This document shows, one piece after another, positions 14,314 through 26,384 of a DNA stretch of 32,000 bases (position 1 is the first letter of the stretch; the number at the start of each line of letters is the position of its first letter). A program made the position numbers and the translations under genes. The notes beneath the pieces are model-generated. The model was not told the DNA's origin and made no database searches. It saw nothing but the letters and a program-made list of their open reading frames with translations. The stretch is from contig NZ_CP097762.1 of assembly GCF_023585745.1 (NCBI RefSeq), positions 360,001 through 392,000 on the forward strand, written 5' to 3'. The stretch is from Candidatus Saccharimonadota bacterium (GTDB taxonomy: Bacteria; Pseudomonadota; Gammaproteobacteria; Enterobacterales; Enterobacteriaceae).

Positions 14314-15180
14314 TTATGTATATAATAGCTTTTGATATAATGGGGATATATTTGCCCCTCGGGTCACTATACTACTCATCCAAGTGGGTAAGTAACTTTG
14401 AACAAGATTAGCCAATTGTTTAGTATCAAATTCAGAAAATATACAAGATCCAGTACCTGTAAGTCTAGCAGTTGTATACTGTGACAGATATTTAAAATAA
14501 ATATTTATTACAGGAAAATATGATCTTACAATGTTTTCAAAGTCATTATAAAATGAACAAGATAACAATTCCCTTACAGAACGATGTGGAGAATAACAAT
14601 ATTTTCTTAATTTATACATCTGAAACACCCAACTAGTACTCACCATAACTGGCGGTATAAGTATAAGGTACCACTTCTCTGGCATAAAAAAAACAGGTGT
14701 TAAAATATTTCCAATGCCCTCTGCGATAGATGAATATCCTAATATAAAAACCGGAACGTCTGCGCCTAACATCTCACCTAATTTCATTAAAATCTTCTGA
14801 CTTAAACAACAACGCCACTTGCGATTAAGCACTACCAAAACAGTTGCAGCATCAGAAGATCCTCCTCCTAAACCAGCACCTATAGGCAACACTTTGTTTA
14901 AAATAATATCTGCCCCAAGGAATAAACTATTTTTAATATTTGACCAACAGTACTTTTGCAACAATCTAGCTGCTTTCATAACTAAATTATTTGAATGTAA
15001 TAAACTGCTGGTTTTAGTAAACAATCGAATTTTTCCATTATTTGTCACAGCTATCTCTATAGTATCGCCATAATTAATAAAATGAAAAAAAGTTTGTAAA
15101 AAATGATAATTATCATCCCGACGACCCGTAACATACAAAAATAAATTAAGCTTACCTGGAGCGGGCCAACAGCCACTCAT
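14314..15180 (-). CDS. ispE: 4-diphosphocytidyl-2-C-methyl-D-erythritol kinase (MEP pathway)
   Basis: The 288-aa product contains WPAPGKLNLFLYVTGRR, the GHMP-kinase motif PIGAGLGGGSSDAATVLV, and ARLTGTGSCIFSEF. It is colinear with E. coli IspE and lies upstream of prs, as in enterics. Confidence 0.94.
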   Translation of the reverse strand: MSGCWPAPGKLNLFLYVTGRRDDNYHFLQTFFHFINYGDTIEIAVTNNGKIRLFTKTSSLLHSNNLVMKAARLLQKYCWSNIKNSLFLGADIILNKVLPIGAGLGGGSSDAATVLVVLNRKWRCCLSQKILMKLGEMLGADVPVFILGYSSIAEGIGNILTPVFFMPEKWYLILIPPVMVSTSWVFQMYKLRKYCYSPHRSVRELLSCSFYNDFENIVRSYFPVINIYFKYLSQYTTARLTGTGSCIFSEFDTKQLANLVQSYLPTWMSSIVTRGANISPLYQKLLYT

Positions 15181-15960
15181 TATTGTCTCCCAATAATACC
15201 ATTAATATAAAACTAAAAAATTAACTTTTAGTAAATTTAAATATTAATGTATTTCTTTATAAGATATTAAAATTTGTATACATGCATATACTAATATCTA
15301 TATATTTAACAAATTTAAAAAAATAATAAAATGTTATTTCAATAATAAAAACTAAAAAATTAAATTTTTATCATTAATAAAAACTTATAATACAATTAAT
15401 TTATATTGTCTATAAGTATATTAATTGTAAATCACACAATTTATGACGAACACAATTTCTAATAATAAATAAACACATACTATATATAAAGCATAATATA
15501 CTGTATATTATAATTAAATAATAATAAAAAACTATGTAAAAATGGCAAATTTACAAAAATATTGATTGATTTTACTAAAAAATCGAATCAGTATGCAATA
15601 AAAATTATTTTGTAATATAAATACACTATGTTAGTAGTACCTAATATTAATCTGATTAAATAAAATTTTTGTTAATCTTTAAAAAATATTCATTAGTATA
15701 ATAAATACCTAATTTAACCTATTAATCAAAATTATTATTAATTAGCACCATTTAATGTTAATATAATAATATTAATATATAATATCTCTATTATTGTAGT
15801 TTTTATTTAAAATTTACATATGTTAAGAAACATATTCCAATATAATAAAAAATTATTATTCTTAATATTCCCAATATATATATAAACATATATACATAAT
15901 ATAATATAAAATTTATAAAACTATATTTTATTAACGCATAAATCTAATCTTAATATTCAT

Positions 15961-17043
15961 ATGGATCCTATTATTATAACAAAACTAATTATTTTAAAAA
16001 AACGCTTTGACGTTTTAAAAAAATTAATTAATACACCGAAAATACTCTATAACAAAAAAAAATTCCTCCTATTACATAAAGAACATACTCAATTATTTGA
16101 AATCGTTACTTGTTTCCAAAATTGGTTAAATACAAAACAAGAAATTAATAACATTAAAAATATGTTAACAGAAAAAGATATGTATGATTTAGTGCAAGAT
16201 GAATTAAAAATATTTAATGCAAAAAAAATTAATCTAGAAAATCAATTAACCATGTTGTTATTACCTGAAGATAAAAATGATAAACTTGGCTGTTTTATAG
16301 AATTACGCGCTGGTACAGGTGGAAAAGAAGCAGCAATATTTACTGCAGAGTTATTTCGAATGTATACTCGATATGCAGAATTACGCCATTGGAATATAGA
16401 AATAATCCACATTGCCGATAGTGAATACGAAGGGTATAAAGAAATTATTATTAAAATTCCTAATAAAGGAGCATATAGTCAATTAAAATTTGAATCTGGA
16501 GGTCATAGAGTTCAAAGAATACCTCATACTGAATCACAGGGTCGAATACATACCTCTACATGCACAATCGCTGTGATTCCTGAAATACCATATACTGATT
16601 TCCCTAAAATTAACTCAAACGATTTAAGAATAGATTCTTTTCGTGCATCCGGAGCTGGCGGACAACATGTGAATACCACGGATTCAGCAATTCGCATTAT
16701 TCACATACCCAGCGGTTTAACTGTAGAATGCCAAGACGAACGATCACAACATAAAAATAAAGCTAAAGCGTTATCAATATTAAATTCTAGATTACACGCA
16801 TTAGAAACTAAAAGACGCCAAAAAGAAGAATCTAATACCCGACGTAATTTATTAGGAACTGGAGACAGATCTGATAGAATTCGTACATATAATTTTCAAC
16901 AAGGCCGAGTTACCGATCACCGAATTTCATTTACGTCCCATAAATTGCATAATATAATGCACGGAGATTTAGATATTTTAATAAAACCTATTATTAATAA
17001 ATATAAATTTGATCAACTCAATAAATTATTACAATCAAAATAA
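15961..17043 (+). CDS. prfA: Peptide chain release factor 1
   Basis: The 360-aa product has the GGQ motif (SGAGGQHVNTTDSAIRI) and a PxT recognition tripeptide at residues 188-190 (PHT, 16522-16530). The motifs HRVQRIP.TESQGRIHTS and GDRSDRIRTYNF are also present. Its length is the same as E. coli RF1. Confidence 0.97.
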   Translation: MDPIIITKLIILKKRFDVLKKLINTPKILYNKKKFLLLHKEHTQLFEIVTCFQNWLNTKQEINNIKNMLTEKDMYDLVQDELKIFNAKKINLENQLTMLLLPEDKNDKLGCFIELRAGTGGKEAAIFTAELFRMYTRYAELRHWNIEIIHIADSEYEGYKEIIIKIPNKGAYSQLKFESGGHRVQRIPHTESQGRIHTSTCTIAVIPEIPYTDFPKINSNDLRIDSFRASGAGGQHVNTTDSAIRIIHIPSGLTVECQDERSQHKNKAKALSILNSRLHALETKRRQKEESNTRRNLLGTGDRSDRIRTYNFQQGRVTDHRISFTSHKLHNIMHGDLDILIKPIINKYKFDQLNKLLQSK

Positions 17044-18137: not shown

Positions 18138-18971
18138 ATGAAAACTTTAACAGTAAATATTAAAGATATAAAAATATCAAACACATTACCATTTGTATTA
18201 TTTGGGGGTATGAATGTTTTAGAGTCACGAGATATAGTAATGCAAGTTTGTGAACATTATATTAACGTAACTCAAAAACTAAACATCCCCTATATCTTTA
18301 AGGCATCTTTTGACAAAGCAAATCGCTCTTCAATAGAGTCATATCGTGGACCAGGATTGCAACGAGGTTTATGCCTACTTGATGAAATACGGAAAAACTT
18401 CAAAGTTAAAATTATGACTGATATACATGAAATACATCAAATAAATGATGTTTCAAAGATAGTAGATGTCTTACAAATACCGGCATTCCTAGCAAGACAA
18501 ACCGATTTAATTATATCTGCAGCAAAAACTGGTATGGCAATCAATATAAAAAAACCTCAATATATGAACCCTACACAAATTACTCATATTGTAAATAAAT
18601 GTCGATCAGTTAAGAACAATAAAATAATTTTATGTGAAAGAGGCACTATTTTTGGGTACGACAACTTAATAGTAGACATGCTAGGTCTGAAAATAATGCA
18701 TCAAGTTTCTGGCGGATGCCCAGTGATAGTAGATGTCACTCATGCTTTGCAAAACAGACAACCACTTAGTAAAACCTCTGGAGGGAGGAACTCACAAATC
18801 TATGAACTCGCTAGAGCTAGTATTGCAATAGGTATTGCAGGGTTATTTTTAGAATCCCATCCAAATCCATACCAAGCTAAATGTGATGGTCTTTCTGCGC
18901 TTCCATTAAATAAATTAGAGTTTTTCCTAAAACAAATGAAAACTATCGATGAAGTAATCAAATCGTTATAA
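18138..18971 (+). CDS. kdsA: 3-deoxy-8-phosphooctulonate (KDO-8-P) synthase
   Basis: The 277-aa product contains [50 protein letters not shown] and [17 protein letters not shown]. It is colinear with E. coli KdsA (284 aa). Confidence 0.96.
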
Positions 18972-19638
18972 AGATAAATACTAATAATATTAGTACATAG
19001 TGTATGTATCAAAAAAATTAAAAAAATCAAATTTTATATAAAAATTAATATTTAATAAATAAAATAATATTAACTACATTTTGATTTTAAATAAAACATA
19101 AAACTTACTAAGTACTTTGATGCAAAAAGACATATATAACTATACATGATATTAAATATATATGTAAATATACAAAACTATCTAAAATACACTTTTATAC
19201 TTAAAACAAATTCAATTTAATTCAAAAAAACAATATAACAATTTATATTTTTGATGTAATATAACAATATTATCTGTCAAAAATTAAAAGTTCTACAAAA
19301 CTAATATATAATTTATGTGAGCGCTCCTATAAATAAATGACATGTTAATAGTAATAAAATTACACTGATATATAATATCATTAATAATAAAATTATTCTA
19401 AAATAGAATTTTTCTGATATTATCTGTGATAAATATATAATTATTTTGACTATACTAGTTTCATTTAATCTATAAAAAACAATGAAATTTCTTTAAGTTG
19501 TAAGAACTAGTAAACATATTTTATATACACATTATTAAAAATAATACAATAACAAGATCACACTCAAATTTATACCTATTTTAAATAATTTATATCAATA
19601 AAAGTACAATACGCACCCTAAAACATAGGGAACTATCA

Positions 19639-20261
19639 ATGCTTGTTATTATTTTGCACAATGAAAACTAATGCTAATAGCATCATATAAAATACCCTTT
19701 GAAATTTTTAACGATATAAATCTAAAATTATCCAAACATTGTATAATAACTCAAAATAACAGAAAAACTTATTAAGTTTATTAATACAATTACTGAAGAT
19801 AATATATTAAAATGTATCATTTTAACAAAAAATTGAATTATATTATAATAAATACCTTTTATGCACATTTATTGAAACATGCAATAAACAATTATGAAAA
19901 AACTAAAATGATGCTCATTACTGAAACAAATAAAAATTCTGTTAATCTACGAGACTCAATAATAACTTAATTACAAATGATCTAATGATCCCAGAACAAG
20001 ATATAGCTAAATCATAAAAATTATGATAATAAAAATAACCACATGTAAACATACTAGAAACACACTTGTTTTACTAAATAAAACATATAAAATATCTACA
20101 ATACATGAAAAAAATTAACTGCAATAAAGATAATAAATTTCATTATCATAAAAATACATAAATATATGCCGGGAACTGCATGATAAACATCATATCTTTA
20201 CAAAACTATAAACTACATAATATTTTATTGTTTAATTCAAATAAAAATTTACAACGTATTT
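19639..20261 (+). pseudogene. thrS: Decayed N-terminal half of thrS (TGS domain and N2 editing domain), broken by frameshifts and stop codons
   Basis: The ancestral ATG at 19639 keeps an AGGGA Shine-Dalgarno sequence (19626-19630). Short translated islands in shifting frames are colinear with E. coli ThrRS residues 1 to about 220:
- MLVIILHNEN* versus MPVITLPDGS
- PFEIFNDINLKLSKHCIITQNNRKTY* versus [26 protein letters not shown]
- ITEDNILKCIILTKN* versus LIENDAQLSIITAKD
- FYAHLLKHAINNYEKTKMMLITETNKN versus [28 protein letters not shown]
- LNHKNYD versus LAEKNYD
- NSNKNLQRIYEIT* versus DSNNKMLQRIYGTAW
I count about five frame changes and at least ten in-frame stops. Confidence 0.85.
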
Positions 20262-21533
20262 ATGAAATCACCTAGAATGAAAAAAAAAATTAGCACTCCT
20301 AAAAATACGTCGAAAATCTTAAACAAATATGACCATCGTATCCTAGCGAAACAATTAAATTTATACCATACACAAATAGATGCTCCAGGCATGATTTTTT
20401 GGCACCCAAATGGGTGGATTTTATTTCAAGAACTAAAAAAATTTATGCGAACACAACTAAAAATATATAAATACCATGAAGTTAAAAGCCCAATGATGAT
20501 TGATCAAAATCTATGGAAAAAAACTGGTCATTGGGACAACTATTACGAGCATATATTTACTACTGATTCGGAAAACCGAAACTTTTGCATCAAACCAATG
20601 AACTGTCCAGGACACATACAAATTTTTAATTACGGTATAAAATCTTATAAAGACTTACCATATCGTATTGCTGAATTTGGTGATTGTCATAGAAATGAAT
20701 CATCAGGATCTTTGCATGGACTCATGAGAACACGATCTTTTACACAAGATGACGGACATATTTTTTGCACAAAAACACAAATATTTGATGAATTAAACTA
20801 TTGTATTGAAATGATGTATAATGTATACAAAATATTTGGTTTTAAAACTGTACTGGTTAAATTATCTACTCGTCCATTAAAACGCATAGGGACAGATGCT
20901 ATCTGGGATGAAACCGAAAAATATTTATACCAAGCATTAAAACATAATAATATTAAATTTCAATACCAACCGAACGATGGTGCTTTTTATGGCCCTAAAA
21001 TAGAATTTATTCTATTAGATTCACTAAATAGAACTTGGCAATGCGGTACTATACAGTTAGATTTTTCTTTACCAAATTTATTGCACACACATTACATAAA
21101 TTCTGAAAATATCAAATTAGCACCTATAATGATTCATAGAGCAATATTAGGATCCATGGAAAGATTCATTGGTTTAATAATAGAAGAATATGGAGGTTTT
21201 TTCCCAACATGGCTAGCTCCAGTACAAGTTGTTATTATCAATGTTACAAAAAAACAAACCCAATATGTATCTGTAATAGAAAAAAAATTAATAAATAAAA
21301 AAATAAGAACTCAAGTAGACTTGAGAAACGAAACAATAGGATTTAAAATTCGGTATTATACCTTGTTACGTATTCCTTATATACTAATCTGTGGAAATAC
21401 AGAAATGGAAAAAAATACAATCACTATACGTACTTACAAAGGAAAAAACATAAAAAATTATGATATAAATAATTTTATTAAAAAATTACTATGTGAAATT
21501 AACAATTATAATTTGTATACAATGGAGGAATAG
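20262..21533 (+). CDS. thrS: Threonyl-tRNA synthetase, catalytic core plus anticodon-binding domain only (N-terminally truncated ORF of 423 aa, versus 642 aa in E. coli)
   Basis: From YDHRILAKQLNLYH onward the ORF is colinear with E. coli ThrRS from about residue 240 to 642. The zinc-ligand contexts are kept (KPMNCPGH, TQDDGHIF, IMIHRAILGSMERF), as are the class II motifs (FGDCHRNESSGSLHGLMRTRSFTQDD), and the C-terminus ends ...MEE. The first ~22 codons are out of the ancestral frame and there is no Shine-Dalgarno sequence, so the actual start is uncertain. Confidence 0.8.
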   Translation: MKSPRMKKKISTPKNTSKILNKYDHRILAKQLNLYHTQIDAPGMIFWHPNGWILFQELKKFMRTQLKIYKYHEVKSPMMIDQNLWKKTGHWDNYYEHIFTTDSENRNFCIKPMNCPGHIQIFNYGIKSYKDLPYRIAEFGDCHRNESSGSLHGLMRTRSFTQDDGHIFCTKTQIFDELNYCIEMMYNVYKIFGFKTVLVKLSTRPLKRIGTDAIWDETEKYLYQALKHNNIKFQYQPNDGAFYGPKIEFILLDSLNRTWQCGTIQLDFSLPNLLHTHYINSENIKLAPIMIHRAILGSMERFIGLIIEEYGGFFPTWLAPVQVVIINVTKKQTQYVSVIEKKLINKKIRTQVDLRNETIGFKIRYYTLLRIPYILICGNTEMEKNTITIRTYKGKNIKNYDINNFIKKLLCEINNYNLYTMEE

Positions 21534-21539
21534 CATATT

Positions 21540-22082
21540 ATTAAACTAGGAAAAAAAAACCAATTAATACGATCTCATCGTATTAATAACGAAATTAAAT
21601 CTAAAAAAATCCGATTAACCGGAGCAGATGGAAAACAAATCGGAGTGGTGAGTTTACATGAAGCACTTAATAAATCCGCAGAAATTGGTTTAGATTTAGT
21701 TGAAATTAGCCCTAATTCTGATCCACCAGTATGCAAGATTATGAATTATGGAAAATTTTTATATGAAAAGAGTAAATCTACAAAAGAACAAAAGAAAAAA
21801 CAAAAAACAATTCATATAAAAGAAATTAAATTTCGACCAAATACTGATGAAGGTGATTATCAAATTAAACTGCGTAACTTGATTAAATTTTTAACCGCAG
21901 GAAATAAAGTAAAAATAACTTTACGTTTCAGAGGAGGTGAATTAGTACATCACCAAATTGGCGCGCAAGTACTATACCGAATACGTCACGAGCTCAATGC
22001 ACTCACAATAGTAGAATTTTTCTCTAATAAAATTGAAGGCCGTCAAATGACCATGATTTTAGCCCCAAAAAAACTAAGATAA
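21540..22082 (+). CDS. infC: Translation initiation factor IF-3, with a non-canonical ATT (AUU) start codon
   Basis: The frame is open back to the thrS TAG (21531-21533). The product [45 protein letters not shown] is colinear with E. coli IF3 ([45 protein letters not shown]) and has the same 180-aa length. GGAGGA at 21524-21529 serves as the Shine-Dalgarno sequence. The ORF-track start at 21645 (GTG) would delete the conserved N-terminus. A second in-frame ATT lies at 21537. Confidence 0.88.
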
Positions 22083-23966: not shown

Positions 23967-26384
23967 ATGAAATTTAGTGAAATGTGGATACGTCAATGGA
24001 TTAATCCTCCTGTAAACAGCGCTGAATTAGGGGATCAGCTAACTATGGCTGGGCTTAAAGTTACTGAATTACAACCAGTATCTAACAAATTTTATGAAAT
24101 AATTATTGGCGAAATTATAGAATGTAAAACCCATGAAGCTTTACAAAATATATGGATAACAACAGTAAATATTGGAGATATAAAACTATTAAATATTTTT
24201 TGTCAAAAGAAAAATTGCAAAAAAAACATCCGAGTTGCTGTAGCTAAAATTGGAGTGATATTACCAAATGGTAACTACATAAAACCAATAACCATACAAG
24301 GAAAACAATCAGAAGGTATTTTATGTACTTTTGCAGAGTTAGGTATTACGAATATTACTGAAGAAATTATAGAACTACCGAACGATGCGCCCATTGGTCA
24401 AAATTTATTTAATTATTTAAATCTACATGATAATACACTAGAAATTAACATTACTCCAAACCGAGGAGACTGCCTTAGCGTTATTGGCGTATCTAGGGAA
24501 ATAGCAGTTATAAATCAACTTAAACTAAAAAAAATTAAAACATCTGCAGTTATTCCAACGATTAGTGATACTATCCCGATATTTATCGACGTACCAGAGG
24601 TATGCCCACAATTCTTCGGAAGAATTCTAAAAAATATTAATATAAATACCCCAACACCTGTATGGATAACAGAAAAACTACGACGATGTAATATTAATAC
24701 AGTTAATATAGTTATAGATACTATCCATTATGTATTACTGGAATTAGGTCAACCCATTTATATATTTGACTATGAAAAACTTGAAGGTCAACTAATTTGC
24801 ATAAGATTTTCTCAAATTGGTGAAGAACTAGTGTTATCTAATAAAAACAACAAAACATTAAAACTTTTTCCAAACACAATAGTGTTTTGTGACAAAAAAA
24901 AACCACTATCAATCGCTGGAGCAGCTATACCGGATACATATAGCGTTCAACCTACAACACATAATATTATTTTACAATCCGCTTTTTTTTATCCTATAAC
25001 TATAGCCAGACAATCTAAACAATATAATTTACATGATCCTTACTCTTTTCGTTACGCAAGAGGAGTTGATATAAAAATATCCGAAGAAGCTTTAAATCAA
25101 GCTACAAATTTATTAATAAATAACTGTGGAGGACAATCCGGTCCAATCATAAATATAACGAACCATAATTTTTTACCAAAAACAATAAAAATTACATTAA
25201 ATCGATCAAAATTAGATAAATTACTTGGATTTCATATACCTGATCAAAAAATCTCACACATTTTAACGCAACTTGGTTATAAATTTATATTTATAAATGA
25301 TACTTGGACAGTAACAATACCCACTTGGCGATTTGATATATCTATAGAAGAAAATTTAATAGCAGAAATAATACGTATTAATGGATATAATAATATTCCT
25401 AAAAAAACATTTTATCACTATCACTCCAGTACAAATCAAAAATATCATCATAACTTCTCCGATATATCATTATCCAGAGCAAAAACTTTACTTATCGATA
25501 AAGGATATCAAGAAATAATAACATACAGTTTTATAAATCCTAAAATTCAAAAACTATTACACCCAAAACAAACACCTTTAATTTTAAAAAATCCAATTAC
25601 ATCAGAAATGTCGGTTATGAGATTATCTTTATGGACTGGTCTCATAACAACGCTATTATATAATTATAATAGACAGCACAAACAAATTAAACTCTTTGAG
25701 AGCGGTATATGTTTTGTTCCCAAAAATCATTCTAATAAACAAGTAGAACAAAATCTTATGATATCTGGAATACGCTCTGGTCTCAGATTTAATAAACATT
25801 GGGATCTAGGAATATATCCTGTAGATTTTTACGATATAAAAGGTGATGTAGAAGCACTATTAAATATCACTATTAAAATGCATTGTGTAAAATTTAGGGA
25901 ATATACACATCCTGCTCTACAACTTGGACAGAGCGCTGCTATTTACGTAAAAAATATATGTATTGGCTATATTGGAATGATTAATCCTATGATACAAATG
26001 CAACTAAACATACGTCCCAAAATATTAATGTTTGAACTATCATGGAACATGATGAAGCAATGTACATTTTCTGAAGTTCATAATACTATCTCTGTTTCTA
26101 AATTTCCTAAAAATTACCGTGATATTTCCGTAATAATACCCGAAGATATCTGCATAGATTCTATTATTACTGCATGCAAATCGCTTTCTAAAAAAGATAA
26201 AATTATTGACATTCAATTATTTGATATCTATAAAGGCCAGAAAATACCAAAAGGTTTCAAAAGTATTACTATGCAATTATCCATACAAAGTAATACACAT
26301 ACTCTAGAAGAAACAGAAATTTCTGATATAATTAAAAAATGCGCAATAATTTTACAAACACATTTTAACGGCACTATAAGATAA
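23967..26384 (+). CDS. pheT: Phenylalanyl-tRNA synthetase beta subunit
   Basis: The 805-aa product starts [14 protein letters not shown]. It contains [73 protein letters not shown] and the [17 protein letters not shown] (FDX-ACB) domain. It is colinear with E. coli PheT (795 aa). An AAGG Shine-Dalgarno sequence lies 6 nt upstream. Confidence 0.96.

Follow-up and report, generated by a model that had tools for sequence, protein, structure and literature searches.

In the carpenter-ant symbiont Candidatus Blochmannia ocreatus, the gene encoding threonyl-tRNA synthetase (ThrRS), thrS, has been split in place, as a preceding sequence-only reading of the same DNA had proposed: alignment with the intact genes of B. 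vicinus and of the Camponotus nipponensis symbiont placed 14 indels in the 5′ half of the gene and none in the 3′ half, which persists as an intact open reading frame (ORF). The locus lies in a 32-kb stretch of the genome (the window, to which coordinates refer unless another locus is named), and the product of the 423-codon ORF matches the threonine--tRNA ligase annotated in B. ocreatus (URJ24861.1 / WP_250222980.1) at 100% identity. This bacterium is host-restricted and has a reduced genome (746,321-bp contig; G+C ~27% in the window). We consider it very probable that the locus is thrS after the loss of its N-terminal half, with a charging half that still works and is deficient in editing. 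Most sequenced Blochmannia share the truncation, making B. ocreatus one more case of the known trend toward loss of aminoacyl-tRNA synthetase (aaRS) editing in host-restricted bacteria.

Decayed 5′ and conserved 3′ halves of thrS

We described the decay by reference to the nearest relatives whose 642-codon thrS is intact, namely B. vicinus (P0002, locus L082) and the C. nipponensis symbiont (P0003, L083). DNA alignment showed that positions 19639–20330 are colinear with nucleotides 1–726 of the intact gene in both relatives, and nucleotide identity across the 5′ half was 60.6% with B. vicinus and 59.6% with the C. nipponensis symbiont. Relative to the intact orthologue, the 5′ half carries 14 indel events, 13 of them frameshifting (including −5, −5, −4, and −2), with a net change of −34 nt. 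The full span from the ancestral ATG to the stop codon is accordingly 1895 nt, compared with 1929 nt in the relatives, which bears out the earlier view that nothing large had been deleted; the same reading had counted about five frame changes, an underestimate. It had also reported at least ten stop codons, a figure that holds for the raw frames (16–26 stops in each) and not for the frame-corrected sequence, in which six remain. The longest open stretch in any frame of the 5′ half is 55 codons, and after frame correction 78 of 242 residues are identical to B. vicinus. By comparison, the 3′ half is 79.4% identical to B. vicinus at the nucleotide level, with no indels and no stops in 1203 nt.

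The ancestral start is still recognizable. The AGGGA at 19627–19631 corresponds to the Shine-Dalgarno sequence upstream of the thrS ATG in the relatives, and the ATG at 19639 aligns with their start codon, in agreement with the earlier assignment of both. This ATG now opens a frame of only 10 codons, MLVIILHNEN followed by a stop, where B. vicinus reads MLVIIVNNGN. Within the remnant, a tblastn search of the window with E. coli ThrRS recovered three islands (aa 70–94, 134–186, and 210–227) as the three best matches after the main one; they are colinear and lie in three different frames. The islands of N1 (TGS) and N2 (editing) homology that had been recognized from the letters are thus upheld as a colinear set, which reaches E = 6e-6 with Blochmannia queries, but each is weak on its own against E. 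coli (E ~0.3). The HxxxH remnant reads IINTFYAHLLKH at 19845–19916, with H73 changed to T and H77 retained; the claim that one of the two histidines had been substituted was correct. No TGS or tRNA_SAD match was found by Pfam in the frame-corrected remnant at E ≤ 10, whereas the N-terminal half of B. vicinus matches tRNA_SAD at 2.6e-12. As the profiles give nothing, the homology of the 5′ half is settled by aligning its DNA with that of B. vicinus and the C. nipponensis symbiont.

We next compared selection on the two halves using the ratio of non-synonymous to synonymous divergence (dN/dS). Synonymous sites were near saturation and YN00 estimates of dS were unstable for most pairs; only NG86 values are therefore quoted, which are approximate and probably underestimate dS. 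In the 5′ half, pairwise dN/dS was 0.47, compared with 0.26 for the intact pair. In the 3′ half, it was 0.127 between B. ocreatus and B. vicinus, 0.120 between B. ocreatus and the C. nipponensis symbiont, and 0.097 when the two intact relatives were compared, values that indicate purifying selection on the catalytic half. The 5′ half thus combines homology at the orthologous position with disabling mutations and relaxed constraint, as expected of a unitary pseudogene. These results confirm that 19639–20261 is the 5′ half of thrS, decayed in place. In annotation, this segment should be marked as a thrS pseudogene fragment, and the product of the ORF as N-terminally truncated.

The 423-aa ORF matches only two Pfam families, tRNA-synt_2b (PF00587, aa 99–310, E = 1.1e-51) and HGTP_anticodon (PF03129, aa 322–411, E = 1.9e-20), and contains neither the N-terminal TGS (N1) domain nor the tRNA_SAD/editing (N2) domain with H73, H77, C182, and H186. 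It aligns without gaps to residues 241–642 of E. coli ThrRS at 61% identity, confirming its proposed colinearity, from 20262 onward, with the catalytic and anticodon-binding domains. An open frame of 423 codons is not expected by chance, because an estimated ~8% of random codons would be stops at this base composition. In the alignment with E. coli, the zinc ligands C334, H385, and H511 are kept, as are D383, R363, E365, R520, Y462, K465, and Q484, that is, all residues that were checked. The conservation of zinc ligands and class II motifs noted in the sequence-only reading was therefore verified, together with the purifying selection it implied. With the catalytic core, the anticodon-binding domain, C334/H385/H511, and D383, the product has the makeup of a bacterial class IIa ThrRS.

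The ORF begins in what used to be linker sequence. Its first 23 codons are linker in a frame shifted by one base from the ancestral one; the start at 20262 arose from ancestral ...TAT GAA..., and two small deletions bring the ORF back to the ancestral frame just before KYDHR. A second in-frame ATG, at 20277, sits 1 nt past the TAG (20273–20275) that ends the last fragment in the ancestral frame.

Truncated ThrRS and the PheRS editing site across Blochmannia

The comparison with sister species suggested in the sequence-only reading shows that thrS is intact in B. vicinus and the C. nipponensis symbiont and truncated in most sequenced Blochmannia. Truncated ThrRS of 402–414 aa is found in B. floridana, B. 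vafra, B. pennsylvanica, B. chromaiodes, B. herculeanus/camponoti, and the symbionts of C. modoc, Colobopsis nipponica, C. obliquus, and Polyrhachis turneri; the protein has 410 aa in B. floridanus, 408 aa in B. pennsylvanicus (UniRef100_Q492V5), and 411 aa in B. vafer. The rarity that had been attributed to the arrangement was thus overstated, since truncated thrS genes are deposited for other Blochmannia, including B. floridanus and B. pennsylvanicus, whose genomes were published in 2003 and 2005. For at least 10 other Blochmannia genomes, the truncated form is the sole ThrRS listed, and the ~64–90% identity of these forms to the catalytic half of B. ocreatus or B. vicinus indicates long-term maintenance. 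Full-length thrS is kept in B. vicinus, Blochmannia sp. SNP, several ‘Camponotus sp.’ symbionts, the C. nipponensis symbiont, and several Logan-assembled lineages.

The truncated genes of other Blochmannia resemble that of B. ocreatus in gene position, in encoding tRNA-synt_2b and HGTP_anticodon only, in starting shortly before the DHR motif (E. coli residue 243), and in having a non-coding gap in place of the N-terminal half. The start precedes the motif by 4–14 residues in other Blochmannia, by 23 in B. ocreatus, and by 31 in one Logan lineage. A colinear decayed N-terminal half precedes the truncated gene in B. pennsylvanica (E = 7e-21) and in the Logan lineages P0004 (8e-14) and P0008 (9e-8), and the corresponding gap of B. 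floridana gave weak, non-colinear matches only. B. ocreatus differs from the others in retaining the ancestral Shine-Dalgarno sequence and ATG, in its 23-residue leader out of the ancestral frame, and in the independence of its loss, given that its sisters B. vicinus and the C. nipponensis symbiont are intact (642 aa) and B. pennsylvanica is nested beside B. vicinus.

A neighbour-joining tree computed from the catalytic half (396 ungapped columns, 100 bootstraps) interleaved truncated and full-length forms. B. ocreatus branched as sister to the pair formed by B. vicinus and the C. nipponensis symbiont (88%), P0004 as sister to a set of five full-length forms (100%), P0020 to four (100%), and P0008 to the full-length P0011 (100%), with the B. 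floridana/B. vafra group, P0014, and the Polyrhachis and Colobopsis symbionts placed elsewhere. B. pennsylvanica adjoined B. vicinus, from which it differs at 38 of 400 columns; from B. ocreatus it differs at 84. Because regain of the domain is implausible, the interleaved tree implies at least seven independent losses. We also considered a shared loss in B. ocreatus and B. pennsylvanica, whose remnants have gap positions in common (e.g., a 2-nt deletion at B. vicinus nt 558), and read these as coincidences of alignment or of mutational hotspots, as B. pennsylvanica is far closer to the intact B. vicinus.

Full-length proteins were not uniformly intact at the editing site. Eight of them (P0005, P0006, P0009, P0011, P0015, P0016, P0018, and P0019) are substituted at H73, C182, or H186, as in P0011 (H73Y, C182L, H186Q) and P0016 (H73L, H77Y, C182S, H186N), and these editing-mutated forms include sisters of the truncated P0008 and P0020. 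This relationship suggests that editing activity goes first and the domain afterwards. The lineages can be arranged in four stages: an intact editing site (B. vicinus group, C. nipponensis symbiont, P0007, P0012, and P0021); a full-length protein with mutated H73, C182, or H186 (the eight above); a readable pseudogene remnant (B. ocreatus, B. pennsylvanica, P0004, and P0008); and a mostly eroded remnant (B. floridana). We tentatively propose, at somewhat less than even confidence, that the N1–N2 module of ThrRS has been lost at least seven times independently in Blochmannia, always at one inter-domain boundary, with the stages forming a series. If this pattern is true and unreported, it amounts to a natural replicated experiment in which editing is lost before the domain and each loss readily brings into use a de novo internal start that has no Shine-Dalgarno sequence. 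The more interesting point is this repeated loss by stages throughout the genus, and it may already be described; our literature search found no paper on the truncation of Blochmannia thrS, which may nonetheless have been published.

Three further observations concern this set of genes. In the truncated P0008 lineage (L086, a contig of Logan SRR32934495, 2213–3000), no kdsA was called between prmC and thrS, unlike in all other Blochmannia loci examined; kdsA appears to have been lost there, and the 788-bp gap contains the remnant of the thrS N-terminal half. Outside Blochmannia, the ThrRS of Buchnera aphidicola of Eriosoma grossulariae (P0081) is full length with H73N, H77Y, C182D, and H186Q. 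ThrRS is truncated at the same boundary in Schneideria nysicola (P0096, 413 aa), an insect symbiont, and in the Logan protein P0059 (430 aa).

Proofreading by phenylalanyl-tRNA synthetase (PheRS) also looks degenerate across the genus, judging from the residues at its editing site. The editing residues of the E. coli PheRS beta subunit are R244, H265, G318, E334, T354, and A356 (PMC3553970). The B. ocreatus pheT product carries R244N, H265Y, G318I, E334Q, T354D, and A356Y; all six positions are likewise substituted in B. vicinus (L082 8452–9929) and the C. nipponensis symbiont (L083 8462–9929), and five of six in B. floridana (L002 13659 onward). The loss of ThrRS editing would therefore belong to a wider erosion of proofreading in the genus. 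It agrees with the generalization, credited to Melnikov et al. 2018 in PMC7373986, PMC10057733, and PMC11020763, that aaRS editing is lost in bacteria restricted to hosts.

B. ocreatus thus adds one naturally editing-less ThrRS to a list that comprises other Blochmannia, yeast mitochondria, and the degenerate enzymes of the Mycoplasma type. Its value is comparative: sister lineages keep the intact gene, the remnant can still be aligned, and other Blochmannia make the series a replicated one. The series bears on the sequence of events by which genome reduction dismantles proofreading, on the origin of new start sites inside genes, and on how much Ser-for-Thr (and, via PheRS, Tyr-for-Phe) mistranslation an obligate symbiont tolerates.

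Proposed function of the truncated ThrRS and alternative explanations

We propose that frameshifts and stops inactivated the region coding for N1 (TGS) and N2 (editing), which would now be drifting as non-coding DNA, and that translation would start from a new ATG (20262 or 20277) in the former linker. The predicted product of ~420 residues, a class II core with an anticodon-binding domain, would be close to E. coli deltaN-ThrRS (residues 242–642). It would form the usual dimer, charge tRNAThr, and reject valine by means of its active-site zinc. A truncated bacterial ThrRS is dimeric and active in activation and charging; when the editing domain is deleted, the dimer is fully active in activation and charges less efficiently (PMC4267643). 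Purifying selection and 61% identity with the active deltaN construct of E. coli suggest that the ORF product threonylates tRNAThr. Post-transfer hydrolysis of Ser-tRNAThr would be absent, with at most weak pre-transfer hydrolysis of Ser-AMP left, and some Ser-for-Thr mistranslation would be tolerated. The editing-less mitochondrial ThrRS makes Ser-tRNAThr despite pre-transfer editing (PMC4267643), and in E. coli the ThrRS editing mutant C182A shows little growth defect, Thr-to-Ser mistranslation being well tolerated (PMC10057733). Translational autoregulation of the E. coli type would presumably be gone as well, because in E. coli it requires the N-terminal region (PMC7373986). The underlying cause would be that aaRS proofreading has been relaxed throughout the genus as its genomes were reduced.

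Known enzymes provide several points of comparison. Residues 24–423 of the ORF align end to end with crystallized chains of truncated E. coli ThrRS (1evk, 1evl, 1fyf, and 1kog, of 401 aa; later constructs of 410–411 aa; 4hwo is among the chains), so that its boundaries fall within a few residues of E. coli deltaN-ThrRS and the identity of 61% extends over the whole construct. The E. coli protein was made in the laboratory; the form in Blochmannia occurs naturally and is known from sequence. E. coli deltaN-ThrRS reportedly cannot clear Ser-tRNAThr, a result ascribed to Dock-Bregeon and colleagues in 2000. The same residues also align, more distantly, with yeast mitochondrial ThrRS (MST1; 3ugq; E = 8.5e-83, compared with 2.9e-179 for the E. 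coli construct). The yeast enzyme, too, is natural and consists of the catalytic and anticodon-binding domains only; it has no post-transfer editing and makes errors in vitro. It differs in being a distant relative and has co-evolved with an unusual tRNAThr1, and its lost domain is not known to have left a gene remnant. Degenerate aaRS editing sites in Mycoplasma are said to have been described by Li and colleagues in 2011. Such erosion of ThrRS, PheRS, and LeuRS proofreading is shared by reduced genomes of the Mycoplasma type and other host-restricted bacteria (PMC7373986, PMC10057733, PMC3553970). Blochmannia shows both modes, namely point-mutated editing residues in some full-length ThrRS, along with substituted sites in four of the four PheT examined, and loss of the entire domain; in B. 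ocreatus, unlike in Mycoplasma, the whole domain was lost by in-place pseudogenization and its remnant is still readable.

With the editing domain absent from its product, B. ocreatus would be counted among organisms with an editing-deficient aaRS. The corresponding proposal of the sequence-only reading is supported by the untranslatable N-terminal half and by the truncated form being the sole ThrRS of so many related genomes, and an editing-deficient ThrRS is the best-supported interpretation. Several points count against it. We infer expression, the start codon used, charging activity, and the loss of editing, all four, from sequence. No Shine-Dalgarno-like motif was found at the ATG at 20262 or at 20277; the starts of the other truncated Blochmannia thrS genes likewise have none. 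The A10 run (20280–20289) right after the ATG at 20277 could reduce the in-frame yield, homopolymers as long as this one being reported to induce transcriptional slippage in Blochmannia and Buchnera. In 18900–20400, sigma-70-like hexamer pairs were not clearly above shuffles (26 vs 19.2 ± 4.8), and no promoter is claimed. One assembly of this species was present in the collections searched, and looking up the ORF product in assemblies yielded no independent sample for comparison. Because our reading spans 32 kb of the genome, the remainder may encode a trans-editing factor or a second, acquired ThrRS. Finally, a relative-rate test on the catalytic half assigned 46 amino-acid changes to the B. 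ocreatus branch and 23 to the B. vicinus branch (p = 0.006), compared with 67 and 60 in four pooled neighbours (kdsA, pheS, rplT, and infC; ratio 1.1); the contrast between thrS and its neighbours is borderline (Fisher p 0.04–0.07). Some relaxation or compensation in the catalytic half of B. ocreatus is thus possible. We treat the acceleration as minor and lineage-specific because the truncated gene of B. pennsylvanica shows none relative to the intact gene of B. vicinus (14 vs 12 changes).

Searches for a second source of the missing functions were negative. No second B. ocreatus ThrRS was found among the 120 best relatives of the ORF. Among the best 120 matches to the B. vicinus N-terminal half in a 5.8-billion-protein collection, there was no free-standing Blochmannia N-domain protein, a weak negative given that B. 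vicinus itself was missed; this search gave nothing but short proteins of free-living bacteria, most of them partial, and the choice of candidates seems to depend on length.

The faster change in the catalytic half could also reflect compensation in an enzyme that is adequately faithful without N2, whether by stronger pre-transfer hydrolysis of Ser-AMP, by kinetic discrimination, or by a low Ser/Thr ratio in the bacteriocyte. We regard this as unlikely. Pre-transfer editing alone fails to prevent Ser-tRNAThr synthesis by ScmtThrRS, EcThrRS, and SccytThrRS (PMC4267643), the absence of acceleration in B. pennsylvanica argues against compensation there, and the degenerate PheRS editing residues point to a general tolerance of errors.

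It is less probable still that all of thrS, the 423-codon ORF included, is a dying pseudogene, with tRNAThr charged by another copy or by the host. Such a gene might well change about twice as fast on the B. ocreatus branch and have a new start without a Shine-Dalgarno sequence; yet its dN/dS is ~0.12, 1269 nt contain no indels or stops, and the checked catalytic residues are all kept. Truncated forms are moreover maintained in at least 10 other genomes, the one in B. pennsylvanica evolves no faster than the intact B. vicinus gene, and the 120 best relatives of the ORF include no further ThrRS of B. ocreatus.

We find it scarcely credible that the N-terminal half is expressed as a trans-editing protein or rescued by slippage or programmed frameshifting, even though the ancestral Shine-Dalgarno sequence and ATG are intact. 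In Crenarchaea, which encode ThrRS-cat and ThrRS-ed, a free-standing DTD-like protein edits in trans, whereas the N-terminal half of B. ocreatus is dead: the ancestral ATG frame ends after 10 codons, no frame in the remnant exceeds 55 codons, and the corrected translation matches B. vicinus at only 78 of 242 residues, keeps six stops, and gives no TGS or tRNA_SAD signal. No separately encoded N-domain protein of Blochmannia was seen among the best 120 N-half matches either. Transcriptional slippage at poly(A) tracts is reported, by Tamas and colleagues in 2008, to rescue frameshifted genes in Blochmannia and Buchnera; it could not rescue the 5′ half, because there are 13 frameshifts, most of them away from long homopolymers.

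That thrS is truly full length and its frameshifts are homopolymer errors can be set aside almost entirely, since in spite of the homopolymer-rich sequence at ~27% G+C and the single assembly of the species, it would require 13 frameshifting indels (several of 2–5 nt) and six substitution stops all to be erroneous, in a 5′ half ~40% divergent in nucleotides next to 1203 indel-free nt, and the same state recurs in many independently sequenced Blochmannia genomes.

Feature coordinates and neighbouring genes

The gene order in the window is prfA-prmC-kdsA, a 1290-bp gap, the 3′ half of thrS, infC, rpmI, rplT, pheS, and pheT. kdsA occupies 18138–18971, and the gap between it and the 3′ half of thrS contains no ORFs. 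The order kdsA ... thrS-infC-rpmI-rplT-pheST is identical in the relatives. An Rfam scan of the whole window at gathering thresholds gave no match, hence no recognizable leader or operator RNA and no tRNA.

Table 1 Features of the thrS locus of Candidatus Blochmannia ocreatus (window coordinates).
Feature	Position	Strand	Basis or remark
Ancestral Shine-Dalgarno sequence (AGGGA) of full-length thrS	19627–19631	+	7 nt upstream of the dead ATG; aligns with AAGGGAA (B. vicinus) and AAGGAAA (C. nipponensis symbiont)
Decayed N1 (TGS) and N2 (editing) half of thrS, untranslatable	19639–20261	+	Colinear with nt 1–726 of intact thrS (B. vicinus, C. nipponensis symbiont)
HxxxH editing-site island (IINTFYAHLLKHAI)	19845–19916	+	tblastn, E. 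coli ThrRS aa 70–94, 48% identity; frame-corrected projection
N2 island including a relic of the D-x-C-R-G-P-H editing motif (NICRELH)	20023–20181	+	tblastn, E. coli aa 134–186; projection
Linker remnant NKNLQRIYEIT-stop, ancestral frame; TAG at 20273–20275	20234–20275	+	tblastn aa 210–227 (match 20234–20287); alignment; sequence
Intact 423-aa ORF, N-terminally truncated ThrRS (catalytic core and anticodon-binding domain)	20262–21533	+	No indels vs relatives; dN/dS 0.12–0.13
Alternative in-frame ATG at 20277, then A10 homopolymer at 20280–20289	20277–20289	+	Sequence
Class II aaRS catalytic core, Pfam tRNA-synt_2b, aa 99–310	20556–21191	+	Zinc ligands and motif 2/3 residues kept
Anticodon-binding domain, Pfam HGTP_anticodon, aa 322–411	21225–21494	+	Pfam match
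pheT (context)	23967–26384	+	Six of six E. coli PheRS beta-subunit editing residues substituted

The spacer between kdsA and the ancestral thrS start measures 667 bp in B. ocreatus (18972–19638), ~1300 bp in B. vicinus (L082 2698–4000), and ~1500 bp in B. pennsylvanica (L084 815–2322). Downstream of thrS, infC apparently starts at an ATT at 21537 or 21540, an AUU-type start as in E. coli; the ORF list gives infC only from a GTG at 21645. A GGAGGA (21524–21529) lies inside the last thrS codons, and an A9 run (21551–21559) falls within the first few infC codons. Upstream of the locus, 15181–15960 is a stretch of 780 bp without an ORF and with very low G+C (0.17 in the 15001–16000 bin), located between a minus-strand 288-aa ORF (14314–15180), which is possibly ispE, and prfA (15961–17043). 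E. coli has lolB and hemA at the matching position, and the stretch may be another eroded gene.

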